64,000 nucleotides of DNA from Mobula hypostoma (Eukaryota), in assembly GCF_963921235.1 (NCBI RefSeq), contig NC_086108.1, positions 3,100,001 through 3,164,000 of the forward strand. Reading direction: 5' to 3'. This document shows, piece after piece, positions 39,401 to 45,400 of this stretch (positions are counted from its first letter, which is position 1; each line of letters starts with the position of its first letter). The notes beneath the pieces are model-generated. The model was not told where the DNA came from. It did no database searches and saw nothing but the letters and a program-made list of their open reading frames with translations. Both the position numbers and the translations under genes were made by a program.

Positions 39401-42400
39401 TTTTCTCCCTCAGTAAATTTGAGATTGCACACCCTGCCCAACTTATACCTTGTCCTATTTACCCTGTGCACGCTGACCCACACTGGCCCAGCCTATCCCA
39501 TCTCTCCTTAGAACTCAAGCCCTCCAGTGCCTGAATCTTTTAGTCATGTACTGTAGAAAAGTACGGCTCGGAAACCGGGCCTTCTGCCCTTCCAGTCCAT
39601 GCTGAAAGCATTTCTTCCTTTCTTTATTAATCTTTTTATTGATTTAAAAAAAGCTTAGCCTTTTAGGACTGAGATTAGGAAAAACTTCTTCACACAGAGA
39701 GTGGTGAATCTGTGGAATTCTCTGCCACAGGAAACAGTTGAGGCCAGTTCATTGGCTATATTTAAGAGGGAGTTAGATATGGCCCTTGTGGCTACGGGGA
39801 TCAGGGGGTATGGAGGGAAGGCTGGGGCGGGGTTCTGAGTTGGATGATCAGCCATGATCATAATAAATGGCGGTGCAGGCTCGAAGGGCCGAATGGCCTA
39901 CTCCTGCACCTATTTTCTATGTTTCTATAAATACAATCAAGAGGAGATTAATTTAAAATCTACAAGTAACAATATAAACCAAGATTAAGATAGACATTGT
40001 CAAAATCATAGATATTGTTAAAACTAGTATAAAATATATAATTTAAAAAAAATGAAAATAACAATTCTCCTCTTACCAGTTTATGAAGAGAAAGGAAAAA
40101 ACATCGGGCTTTAAGTGAAAAGAAAAAAAAAACCCACTACACTATATACTTAAAAAAACCAAAAAAAAAGGGACTGGGCAGTCCATTTTGAGGATACGAC
40201 CAAAAAAGAAAGAAAGACTTTCTGATCAAATCGAAAACTTCGAAAAAAAGGACTGGAAGAGTAATAAATCAAATTAAATGAAAATATGCGATAAAAGGTC
40301 GCCATATTTGCTCAAATTTAAAGGATGTATCAAATGTCCAACTTCGTATTTTCTCTAAACTTAAACAGGACATAATGGAGGAGAGTCAATAAAAGACCGT
40401 AGGTGGATCAGAATCCTTCCACTTCAGTAAAATGGTTCTCCTAGCCAGTAAGGTCGATAAGGCTATCATACGTTGAGCGGAAACAGGAATATTTCCTGCT
40501 TCCGATGGGATCATCCCAAAAACTGCCGTAAGTAAATTAGGTTGTAGATGCAGATCCAAAACTTTTGATAGTATTTTAAAAACATCTCTCCTAAAATTAT
40601 CTAGCTTTATACAACACCAATACATATGAGTTAAAGTGGCCAGCTCAGTATCACATCCGTCACAAATAGGATTATTATTGGGGAAAATACGCACTAGTTT
40701 ATCCTTTGATATATGGGCCCGATGCACTACCTTGAACTGTATCAAGGAATGATGGGCACAAATAGATGAGTTGTTAACCGAATGAAAAATTTTACTCCAT
40801 TCATTATCTGAAAATGACTCTTGAAGTTCCGATTCCCAGGCGCGTTTAATTTTGTCATTAGATATCATTCGTGAACTCAATAACCGTTTATAGATTATAG
40901 CTATCAACCCTTTTTGAAATGGTTTAAACTGAAAGAGAACATCTGTCATATTAGGTGGATAAGCAGAAGGGTAATTTGGTAACAAACCACGTAAAAAATT
41001 CCTAATTTGTAAATATCTAGAAAAAGTGTACATTAGATAAATCATATTTATCCACTGAGAAAAAGACATTAAACAGCCCTCTAAAAACAAATCTGAAAAA
41101 GTTATTATTCCCTTGGTTTTCCAAATTAAAAAGGCCTTATCCAAAGTTGATGGCTTAAAAAAATAATTGAGATGGATATTACTAGAAAGAATAAAATTAT
41201 TTAACTCAAAAAATCTACGAAACTGAAACCAAATTCTTAATGTATGTTTAATAATGGGATTAAATTCTTGTCTGCTAATCTTAGAAAACAAAAAGGGAAG
41301 AGGAACTCCCAGTAAAGAGGCCAAAGAGAATCCTTTCACGGAGTTTACTTCTAGATCCAGCCATGAAGGACATTCATGTATATCTGAATAGTGAATCCAA
41401 AAAGTAATACATCGAATATTAATTGCCCAATAATACATTCTAAAGTTAGGCAAAGCCATACCACCATCCTTTTTAAATTTCTGCAATAAGGGTTTACTCA
41501 ATCGAGGATTTTTATTATTCCAAATATAAGATAAAATTATAGAACCTATTCTGTCGAAGAACTTTTTAGGAACAAAAGAAGGAACTGCCTGAAATATATA
41601 TAAAAATTTCTGTAAAACTGTCATTTTAATATCATTAATTCGACCTGTTAATGATAATGTCATAGGCGACCATTTAGAAAGCATTTGTTTGGTGTAGCCA
41701 ATTAATGGAAAAAAATTATATGTATAGAGATCCTTCATATCTTTAGTAATTTTAATACCAAGATAGGTAAAGTAATTTTTAGCAATACTAAAAGGTACTT
41801 AATGATTTGATGATTTGGATCTGAGTAATTATTAATAAGAAATAACTCACTTTTGTGTAAATTTAATTTATACCCAGAAAAACTACTGAATTCAGAAAAT
41901 ATAGATAACATAGAAGGAATAGATTTCTTAGGATCTGAAATATAAACTGCATATAATGAAACCTTGTGTACTTTGTCCCCTCTCTTAATACCCTGAACGG
42001 TGTTAGAATCTCTAAGAGCAATAGCAAGGGGTTCTAAGGCCAAGTTAAATAATAAAGGGCTGAGAGGTAATGTTACCCTGTTGAGTAATGTTATGTTATC
42101 TAAAATAGGGAGGTTTTTGATTATTATTATAACAGCAGCTACAGGAGCATGATAGATCAATTTGATCCAGGAAATAAATCCCGGGCCAAGATTAAATCTT
42201 TCCAAAACCTCGAATAAGTAAGACCACTCCACCCTATCAAAGGCTTTCTCTGCATCAAGAGAAACAGCACATTCAGATTCTTCAGATGGAGAAGAGTGAA
42301 TAATGTTTAATAGTCTTTGAATATTAAAATGTGAATGCAAACAACAGGAATTCTGCAGATGCTGGAAATTCAAGCAACATACATCAAAGTTGCTGGTGAA

Positions 42401-45400
42401 CGCAGCAGGCCAGGCAGCATCTATAGGAAGAGGCGCAGTCGACGTTTCAGGCCGAGACCCTTCGTCAGGACTAACTGAAGGAAGAGTGAGTAAGGGATTT
42501 GAAAGCTGGAGGGGGAGGGGGAGATGCAAAATGATAGGAGAAGACAGGAGGGGGAGGGATAGAGCCGAGAGCTGGACAGGTGATAGGCAAAAGGGGATAC
42601 GAGAGGATCATGGGACAGGAGGCCTAGGGAGAAAGACGGGGGGGGGTGACCCAGAGGATGGGCAAGAGGTATATTCAGAGGGACAGAGGGAGAAAAAGGA
42701 GAGTGAGAGAAAGAATGTGTGCATAAAAATGAGTAACAGCTGGGGTACGAAGGGGAGGTGGGGCCTAGCGGAAGTTAGAGAAGTCAATGTTCATGCCATC
42801 AGGTTGGAGGCTACCCAGACGGAATATAAGGTGTTGTTCCTCCAACCTGAGTGTGGCTTCATCTTTACAGTAGAGGAGGCCGTGGATAGACATGTCAGAA
42901 TGGGAATGGGATGTGGAATTAAAATGTGTGGCCACTGGGAGATCCTGCTTTCTCTGGCGGACAGAGCGTAGATGTTCAGCAAAGCGGTCTCCCAGTCTGC
43001 GTCGGGTCTCACCAATATATAAAAGGCCACATCGGGAGCACCGGACGCAGTATATCACCCCAGTCGACTCACAGGTGAAGTGATGCCTCACCTGGAAGGA
43101 CTGTTTGGGGCCCTGAATGGTGGTAAGGGAGGAAGTGTAAGGGCATGTGTAGCACTTGTTCCGCTTACACGGATAAGTGCCAGGAGGGAGATCAGTGGGG
43201 AGGGATGGGGGGGACGAATGGACAAGGGAGTTGTGTAGGGAGCGATCCCTGCGGAATGCAGAGAGAGGGGGGAGGGAAAGATGTGCTTAGTGGTGGGATC
43301 CCGTTGGAGGTGGCGGAAGTTACGGAGAATAATATGTTGGACCCGGAGGCTGGTGGGGTGGGTGTCCAACATATTATTCTCCGTAACTTCCGCCACCTCC
43401 AACGGGATCCCACCACTAAGCACATCTTTCCCTCCCCCCCTCTCTCTGCATTCCGCAGGGATCGCTCCCTACACAACTCCCTTGTCCATTCGTCCCCCCC
43501 ATCCCTCCCCACTGATCTCCCTCCTGGCACTTATCCGTGTAAGCGGAACAAGTGCTACACATGCTCTTACACTTCCTCCCTTACCACCATTCAGGGCCCC
43601 AAACAGTCCTTCCAGGTGAGGCACCACTTCACCTGTGAGTCGACTGGGGTGATATACTGCGTCCGGTGCTCCCGATGTGGCCTTTTATATATTGGTGAGA
43701 CCCGACGCAGACTGGGAGACCGCTTTGCTGAACATCTACGCTCTGTCCGCCAGAGAAAGCAGGATCTCCCAGTGGCCACACATTTTAATTCCACATCCCA
43801 TTCCCATTCTGACATGTCTATCCACGGCCTCCTCTACTGTAAAGATGAAGCCACACTCAGGTTGGAGGAACAACACCTTGTATTCCGTCTGGGTAGCCTC
43901 CAACCTGATGGCATGAACATTGACTTCTCTAACTTCCGCTAGGCCCCACCTCCCCCTCGTACCCCAGCTGTTACTCATTTTTATGCACGCATTCTTTCTC
44001 TCACTCTCCTTTTTCTCCCTCTGTCCCTCTGACTATACCTCTTGCCCATCCCCTGAGGTCCCCCTGCTTGTCTTTCTCCCTGGACTTCCTGTCCCATGAT
44101 CCTCTCGTATCCTCTTTTGCCTATCACCTGTCCAGCTCTTGGCTCCATCCCTCCCCCTCCTGTCTTCTCCTATCATTTTGGATCTCCCCCTCCCCCTCCA
44201 ACTTTCAAATCCCTTACTCACTCTTCCTTCAGTTAGTCCTGACGAAGGGTCTCGGCCTGAAACGTCGACTGCGCCTCTTCCATTAAAATGTGAATATCTG
44301 TTTTTAATAAATCCAGTTTGGTCATTGGAAGAAACAGTAGGTAAAATATTCTCAAGTCCATTAGCCAAGATCTTAGAGAGAATTTTAAAGTCCACATTCA
44401 ATAGAGAAATTGGTCTATAAGAGGCGCATTCAGATAAATCTTTATCTTTTTTAGGAATTAAGGAGATTGAAGCTTCATAGAAAGTTTTCGGGAGAGTCCC
44501 AGAGGATATAGAGTCAGTGAAAATTTGACATAAATGAGGTATAAGTATATCAGTAAAAGTCTTATAAAATTCCACTGTATATCCATCTGGTCCTGGAGCC
44601 TTAGCTGATTGGAGAGAGGATATAGCCCTTGCTATTTCCTCTTGTTTAATAGTTGCATCTAATGTATTCATATCTTGAATAGAGATTTTAGGTATATTCA
44701 CTTTTTGCAAAAAAACTATCCATAAAAGTAATATTATCTGACAATTCAGACATAAAGATTAGAGTAGAAATCCACAAATATCTTATTAATTTCATAAGGA
44801 TCTGCCGTTGCAGTTCTATCAGGTCTTCGTATTTTCAGGAGCTGTCTTCTAGCCATATTTGCTTTTAACTGACCAGCTAATAATATGCCTGATTTGTCTC
44901 CATGTATATAAAATTGGCTTTTGGAATTAAAAAGTTGCTGTTCAATGGGAAAGGTCAAAAGCAAATCATGTTGTGCTTGGATTTCCACCCTTTCCTTAAA
45001 GAGATCTTCACTAGGTGTTACTGAATAGAGTTTATCTATTTCTTTAATCCTATTAGTGATCAGTAAAAGTTTCGCCTTAGTTTTCCTTCTTGAACCTACC
45101 GAATATGAAATTATCTGTCCCCTAAGAAAAGATTTCATCGCATCCCAAGTAACCAAATTTGACACTCCTTCAGTTGTATTCAATTCAAAAAATAGAGAAA
45201 TTTGTTCTTTAATAAAATTTACAAAAGTTGAATCTTGCAACAATGAAATATTAAATCTCCACTGAGGTATGTGAATATTATCAGAGAGTTCCAAAGTTAG
45301 TTTCATAGGTGCATGATCTGACAATGCAATCACATCATATGCACACTCAACAACAGAGGGCACCGATCACGTATCCAAGAAAAAATAATCAATTCTTGAA

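Follow-up and report, generated by a model that had tools for sequence, protein, structure and literature searches.

A head-to-head Penelope-like insertion in a KPTN intron of Mobula hypostoma whose arms probably derive from two templates

The stretch of DNA analysed here (64,000 nucleotides of contig NC_086108.1 of Mobula hypostoma, positions 3,100,001 to 3,164,000 in assembly GCF_963921235.1, hereafter called the window) contains two 5'-truncated copies of a Penelope-like element (PLE) that are joined head to head within a long interspersed element (LINE). This LINE is of the L1 type and lies in the last intron of KPTN, a gene on the plus strand. Our findings support the view that both copies, here called the left and right arms, arrived in a single insertion. 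The arms probably derive from two different source templates, as indicated by their alleles, and the right arm carries a short tract that is otherwise found in two neighbouring, older copies of the family. The insert is real and mostly ordinary, since its architecture has already been published for PLEs.

The insert has a length of 1,945 bp (42337-44281) and is enclosed by a single 14-bp target-site duplication (TSD). Its parts are the following:

42323-42336, plus strand: left copy of the TSD, 14 bp, a word confined in the window to the two TSD copies and supported by uninterrupted L1 paralogs
42337-43361, minus strand: left arm, a 5'-truncated Penelope-like copy of the youngest haplotype that reaches the common full 3' end
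42337-42425, minus strand: 3' tail of 89 nt, present on the left arm only
43343-43363, no strand: central unpaired stretch of 21 nt
43364-44281, plus strand: right arm, a 5'-truncated copy of a different haplotype that ends 15 nt past the predicted ribozyme cut
44282-44295, plus strand: right copy of the TSD, on the same basis as the left copy

A preliminary description, made from the letters of the window, had reported reverse-complementary arms of ~917 bp (42426-43342 and 43364-44281), and these arms are indeed 97.6% complementary. In total, 22 of 919 alignment columns differ (19 substitutions and 3 gap columns), and the longest perfect run is 255 bp. The proposed fold-back of ~1.86 kb holds with respect to the head-to-head arms, but not with respect to its size, the left arm having the extra 3' tail. 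Likewise, the 21 nt between the arms are unpaired as had been described, but they are not a mere separator: 19 nt are upstream element sequence of the left arm, and the 2 extra bases duplicate those with which the right arm begins. The differences between the arms, which had been called scattered, are instead clustered, with 14 of the 19 substitutions located within 169 nt of the 3' untranslated region (UTR; 44033-44201).

The 14-mer ATTAAAATGTGAAT flanks the insert on both sides and is absent elsewhere in the window. This word represents a true duplication, because the L1 paralogs continue straight into the right flank and because deletion of the insert plus one TSD copy in silico restores an open L1 ORF2 frame (ORF, open reading frame). 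All four of the L1 paralogs that were fetched are uninterrupted across the site and contain the TSD word once, small differences being allowed. A search with positions 42260-42360 gave the same picture, as 39 of the 40 scored places, that is all but this locus, align to the L1 part only. The earlier view that one TSD brackets both arms, and hence that there was one insertion event, is thus confirmed by the unique word and the L1 paralogs.

To describe the alleles, we use a numbering along the left arm in element sense, in which L1 is position 43363 of the window and L1027 is position 42337, so that the right arm covers L22-938; loci carry three-digit numbers. The comparison set consisted of 60 other loci of the family (L002-L065 less four duplicates) with ~1.5-kb flanks, which were picked by their likeness to the right arm. 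Of the 19 arm substitutions, 16 (with the inner sites 222 and 646 among them) have both of their alleles represented in 2 or more further copies of the family, and the remaining 3 are private or almost private. Of the four inner changes in the right arm, two are family alleles (222T in 8 and 646G in 9 other copies). In the distal 258 nt (L681-938), the left arm shows no substitutions relative to loci L005 and L006. In the same part, the right arm differs from the left arm at 14 compared sites and from its nearest sampled copy at 9, and the left arm ranks merely 44th of 62 among the neighbours of the right arm. The left arm is of the youngest haplotype and the right arm of another. This bears out the suggestion in the preliminary description that two RNA templates were used, rather than that the arms diverged later. 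Its idea that another template accounts for the differences is supported as far as the haplotypes are concerned, but a part of the differences belongs to the short tract common to two neighbouring old copies.

The family is large, with 3,592 candidates genome-wide, of which 40 were scored. Among the 60 other loci there are six further adjacent head-to-head pairs, three of them with TSDs of 14-16 bp. The junction offsets of these other pairs range from 11 to several hundred nt, and their arms are of differing haplotypes. For example, 7 of 9 arm substitutions are family-shared in the pair at locus L053, and 8 of 17 in the pair at L033. A near-symmetric head-to-head pair is found at L013:472-2468 (contig C52), where the offset is 11 nt, the left arm is interrupted, and the arms differ at 24 sites, 8 of which are family-shared. 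At L047:1078-3352, four pieces are arranged with junctions of both the head-to-head and the tail-to-tail kind. Across the 3' 1 kb, the family haplotypes at L002-L065 are strongly mosaic, implying what may be frequent recombination or template switching among sources.

The ends of the copies are also patterned. When both arms of the present insert are included (n=77), the 3' ends fall at L1020-1027 (39 copies), L980-998 (32 copies) and L930-949 (4 copies), with 2 others. The 3' ends of the arms lie 104 nt (left) and 15 nt (right) beyond the predicted ribozyme cut, and neither arm starts or stops at this cut; an element end defined by the ribozyme was accordingly rejected. At their 5' ends, the arms stop at the nearly coincident points L3 (left) and L22 (right). 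Other copies have 5' ends at -5, -1, 24 and 27 in the left-arm numbering, so that the close stop points may reflect a common stall zone. The 5' truncations seem to group at L-137 to -123 (4 copies) and at L-5 to 27 (4 copies plus both arms), which suggests stall sites in this small, selected sample.

The differences between the arms cannot be explained by point mutations that accumulated in two identical arms after insertion, because 16 of the 19 substitutions are family alleles and because of the distal neighbour ranking. The three private or nearly private substitutions are what such mutation would account for. It would not predict that 14 of 19 substitutions fall into 169 of 917 nt (binomial probability 2e-7, for a window chosen after the fact), nor that nearly all derived states lie on one arm, and together with the ranking and the family alleles we regard it as refuted, with next to no probability left. 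Another scenario is that a single cDNA primed its own second strand by folding back over a loop of ~17 nt, thereby producing the right arm, and that later conversions rewrote 44033-44201. Self-priming has been proposed for junction palindromes of PLEs (PMC3846280), and it would suit the fact that the arms stop merely 19 nt apart, at a junction compatible with a 2-3-nt fold-back. It would also suit the inner 659 nt, where just 5 substitutions are found, and the minority alleles at 624, 735 and 738 that both arms have in common. Yet the inner right-arm alleles 222T and 646G segregate in the family, the distal part would require at least two donors, and the other pairs show variable offsets and differing haplotypes. 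Moreover, the 3' end of the right arm falls on the same base as that of the independent copy L004, as expected for a priming site on RNA. We therefore consider the fold-back scenario unlikely.

Within the right arm, one short segment has a peculiar distribution:

44041-44080, plus strand: tract identical to loci L062 and L063, 40 nt at maximum, with a diagnostic core at about 44052-44069

When positions 44026-44095 were searched against the genome, 2,044 candidates were obtained, of which 40 were scored; the best matches of these were L062 and L063, both on the same contig as the insert (C50). L062 is located at C50:3,041,588, 102 kb before the insert, and L063 at C50:3,761,545, 617 kb beyond it. 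The 20-nt core has 3 exact occurrences in 3.48 Gb, and the 28-nt motif at 44045-44072 likewise has 3, whether up to 2 or up to 3 mismatches are allowed; by this whole-genome pattern count, all three are the right arm, L062 and L063. The chance of finding two random copies both within 620 kb is ~1e-7, as computed after the fact. Between 44040 and 44081 the right arm is identical to L062 and L063, and at either bound it carries an allele of its own. L062 and L063 are old-subfamily copies that are 89-91% identical to the arms; the identity between the two is 93%. Their flanks are unrelated, and L063 has its own 13-bp TSD, as read by eye. A 23-nt background marker from L063 has 1,229 exact matches genome-wide, and none of 20 fetched copies with this marker contains the motif. 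The sister grouping of L062 and L063 has a support of 98/91 with the tract and loses this support once the tract is masked, the masked bootstrap being not fully settled. A cluster private to L062, taken as a control, has one exact match, which is L062 itself.

A longer local tract was ruled out, as the 85 nt of the right arm that follow (44066-44150) find their best match in dispersed copies at 98%. A segmental duplication of the three motif loci was also rejected; L062 and L063 have nothing in common beyond the element and one unrelated repeat, and the L1 flanks of the insert match neither of them. A short run of alleles identical to a paralog, with the recipient's own alleles on both sides, is the signature of gene conversion, and the tract is best read as a putative short ectopic gene conversion (≤40 nt) between neighbours. 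Non-allelic conversion between element copies is established, with an effect of distance on Alu conversion within ~10 kb (PMC8230782, PMC6598467). The range of 102-720 kb and the double movement of the same tract remain odd.

Three other explanations for the tract have to be weighed. The tract may have been acquired during insertion, if reverse transcription came to a halt at the C-run in the 3' UTR and the enzyme briefly switched to the nascent RNA or the DNA of a neighbouring copy. This would explain the repeated position, since the same tract, ending at the C-run, is twice common to neighbours and no part of the family is as variable as the C-run. Retention of introns and mobilisation of host DNA in trans are furthermore described for PLEs (PMC3846280), which to us would suggest nuclear templates. 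Still, this is a single case that sequence alone cannot tell apart from a later conversion. The private control cluster of L062 occurs in no neighbour, so that local sharing is not general, and L062 lies antisense in an intron of an apparent host gene. The exon at L062:290-370 presumably belongs to NAPA, the neighbour of KPTN in human. Overall, we give such copy choice a small chance. Smaller again is the chance that a lost or unassembled local source with the motif gave rise to L062, L063 and the right arm through local hopping, to which the local position of all three carriers would point. L062 and L063 do form one weakly supported sub-lineage, with 5' ends within ~10 nt of each other, but they differ at a non-CpG lineage site (equivalent to 44122), the right arm is of the young type outside the tract, and no such source element is present in the assembly. 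To our knowledge, local hopping is not expected of retroelements. Lastly, the tract or the palindrome could be an artefact of assembly or polishing, which appears very improbable. Inverted PLE insertions do trouble assemblies (PMC8557442), and no contig or read spanning a junction was among those listed. Against an artefact stand the exact TSD with unique junctions, the non-identity of the arms, and a 79-nt contig of sequencing run X1 that covers 44028-44106 with one difference and is thus closer to the right arm than L062 and L063, which have three and four. This contig argues that the patched haplotype is real DNA, although X1 is possibly the source sample or a relative and is therefore not independent proof.

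It should be noted that several observations weigh against a two-template insertion followed by conversion. As the comparison set was chosen by likeness to the right arm, the counts of right-arm alleles are inflated. Over the inner part (L22-680), with its 5 arm differences, the left arm is tied as the nearest of 47 to the right arm. No RNA run was listed among the sequencing runs, which says nothing about expression; contigs of four runs, none of them recorded as RNA, were compared with 43335-44900 and none of those listed bridges a junction; the signal is swamped by family copies, and several L1-flank positions show only the other letter. With respect to the tract, the motif differs from its nearest non-local form, at L065, by one substitution and one inserted base, which are few characters; no copy with the inserted base only was found elsewhere. 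Conversion would furthermore demand that the same short tract moved twice among three copies, or that a fourth donor, absent from the assembly, was involved, and it would have acted over distances of 102-720 kb that are far beyond the ~10-kb range of raised Alu conversion (PMC8230782, PMC6598467).

Taking these points together, we consider it reasonably probable that a two-RNA insertion and a separate ectopic conversion among neighbours explain the whole. The element's GIY-YIG endonuclease would have cut the two strands 14 bp apart in the AT-rich L1, as the observed duplication suggests. Each 3' end would then have primed reverse transcription on its own Penelope RNA, in the way described for the Anolis element (PMC11167929), with internal starts at the two sites past the ribozyme cut that are marked by the observed ends. 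The two RNAs would have come from the different source haplotypes seen in the arms. Both cDNAs presumably stopped near one spot, where other copies also break off, and they would have been joined via the 2-3-nt match with a 2-nt stutter that is seen at the junction, the order of these events being our suggestion. Separately, the tract of at most 40 nt beside the variable C-run would have been swapped by ectopic conversion among three copies within 720 kb; the tract sharing is observed, and from it we infer the conversion, its timing and its direction. The near-perfect palindrome may itself have supplied the break for this conversion.

The element could be classified from its remaining coding sequence and its hammerhead motifs, which the preliminary description had placed on both arms:

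42437-42472, minus strand: minimal type I hammerhead of the left arm, core 42441-42468, by pattern match
42765-43286, minus strand: C-terminal ORF remnant of the left arm, with linker CX4CxxC and GIY-YIG endonuclease, CxxC inside the core
43421-43942, plus strand: C-terminal ORF remnant of the right arm, GIY-YIG endonuclease
44235-44270, plus strand: minimal type I hammerhead of the right arm, core 44239-44266, predicted cut after 44266, sense in KPTN pre-mRNA

Both arms match GIY-YIG of Pfam above the cut-off and neither contains a reverse transcriptase; the GIY-YIG domain and the common hammerhead core of each arm had been described correctly. Two cysteines between GIY and YIG and downstream histidines, the CCHH motif, are present in both arms. 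The linker between reverse transcriptase and endonuclease, upstream of GIY-YIG, contains the motif CKRNKCYTC, in agreement with CX2-5CxxC. The family copy L017 has a 692-aa open frame with the same C-terminus as the arms, in which RVT_1 (E 8e-4) and GIY-YIG (E 5e-3) follow in this order, both below the Pfam cut-offs. According to PMC8557442, CCHH defines endonuclease-bearing PLEs and the CX2-5CxxC linker distinguishes Neptune and Nematis from Penelope/Poseidon. Judged by these motifs, the element is a canonical endonuclease-bearing PLE of the Neptune or Nematis type; membership in the Penelope/Poseidon clade was ruled out by the linker motif. The insert also shows the canonical inverted 5'-truncated copy, one-sided tail and TSD.

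The hammerhead core pattern has 3 matches in the window, as compared to 0.00 in 100 shuffles. The motifs have a 4-bp helix I and no helix III, the helices having been read by eye on the pattern match. An Rfam scan of 40000-47000 detected no hammerhead family, giving only hairpin-driven miRNA matches below gathering scores, and in RNA folding the minimum-free-energy fold differs from the hammerhead fold (z 0.08-0.66). The minimal type I hammerheads of metazoan PLEs (PMC4209133) are alike in the conserved core, the 4-bp helix I, the lack of a helix III with palindromic CG and the extra base before helix II. Their helix II has a conserved G-C closing, whereas a T precedes GAAAC in 62 of the 63 motif copies compared, which makes the closing pair of the young subfamily a G-U; the majority of 20 old-subfamily copies have a C there. 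A second difference is that the two motifs of the insert are on opposite strands, so that the insert offers no same-strand partner for a cis dimer. Two small, old head-to-head pairs of Penelope 3' ends lie elsewhere in the window, at 14033-14233 and 59013-59182, the former with an intact hammerhead core (14114-14141). At 57229-58007, a 57-bp tandem array of 13.7 units (96% matched) is derived from the 3' end of an older Penelope-type repeat.

Direct and adjacent inverted repeats within one TSD and with a one-sided tail are a typical Penelope structure (PMC3846280). The present insert resembles Pen2a_Av of Adineta vaga (PMC3846280; scheme in PMC8557442) in its adjacent inverted 5'-truncated copy, the single TSD around the unit, the tail at one end and the C-terminal GIY-YIG with CxxC in the core. 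In contrast to Pen2a_Av, the tail difference is 89 nt instead of 30-40 nt (PMC3846280), the arms are different family haplotypes, and one arm has a neighbour-shared tract. For Poseidon of Anolis carolinensis (PAc), the protein is described as cutting and extending both strands, starting internally on RNA and being a predicted dimer (PMC11167929). The AT-rich target and the internal starts downstream of the hammerhead are common to PAc and our element, and cutting plus extension of both strands would yield the present structure. Unlike PAc, our element has the CX4CxxC linker that is missing in Penelope/Poseidon, and it has three 3'-end classes rather than two. The tract in turn resembles conversion between Alu or long terminal repeat neighbours (PMC8230782, PMC6598467) in that alleles of an older subfamily are clustered in a younger copy with identifiable donors. 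It differs in the range of 102-720 kb versus <10 kb, and in that three copies carry one tract. A literature search, in which most subscription journals were not covered, found no published evidence for a two-RNA origin of PLE arms and no published conversion among PLE copies.

The insert is surrounded by the following host features:

37183-37392, plus strand: KPTN exon 5' of the host intron, matching kaptin in the PDB (E 3e-13)
40386-47570 (approximate ends), minus strand: host L1-type LINE, degenerate, with the reverse transcriptase region of ORF2 (RVT_1) split by the insert
50270-50430, plus strand: likely last KPTN coding exon, of which the start but not the end is fixed, without a match in the PDB

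The placement of the insert within an L1 in a KPTN intron, as had been described before, is borne out by the upstream kaptin match, which extends to residue 394 of 436, and by the restored ORF2 frame. We take the LINE to be of the L1 clade from its protein motifs. The exon candidates at 3359, 9294, 17914, 20512 and 37183 presumably all belong to KPTN, the one at 37183 being the one that was matched to kaptin in the PDB. The exon beginning at 50270 is the only convincing exon downstream of the insert; a 27-aa PDB search with this exon gave no match. Just past a KPTN exon begins a 5-kb C/T-rich degenerate tandem array with a period of 21-24 (20635-25629).

In principle, it is possible that the arms form a duplex in KPTN pre-mRNA, with the 255-bp perfect run; that this duplex would be a substrate of ADAR or Dicer is a conjecture of the preliminary description. 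Of the two hammerheads, only that of the right arm is sense in this transcript, and the preliminary description had proposed that the duplex would mask it. Such masking is likely inconsequential, because the right-arm ribozyme lacks a same-strand partner in the insert. It is likely moot also because cleavage of the metazoan minimal hammerhead was not detectable for a single motif and was slight for dimers (PMC4209133), and because the Anolis ribozyme is protein-assisted and dispensable for insertion in vitro (PMC11167929). We propose that the insert is a dead passenger in the intron, for which no RNA function is required.

There is also a slight chance, no greater than that of copy choice itself, that the Penelope reverse transcriptase works on two RNAs and, when stalled at a C-run, copies a nearby genomic copy or transcript in the same domain (0.1-0.7 Mb). 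If so, each new insertion would keep a trace of the old copies that were in physical proximity, and the local spread of rare variants would be due to copy choice linked to retrotransposition and not to ordinary gene conversion. An exchange during insertion would then be a new step in the Penelope cycle. The genome contains many two-armed insertions, and the present case adds genomic support to the view that the arms of such insertions derive from two RNAs. A two-RNA origin fits the priming on both strands that was observed in vitro and argues against pure self-priming, and the tract is a case of sequence being passed between dispersed retroelement copies that lie hundreds of kilobases apart.

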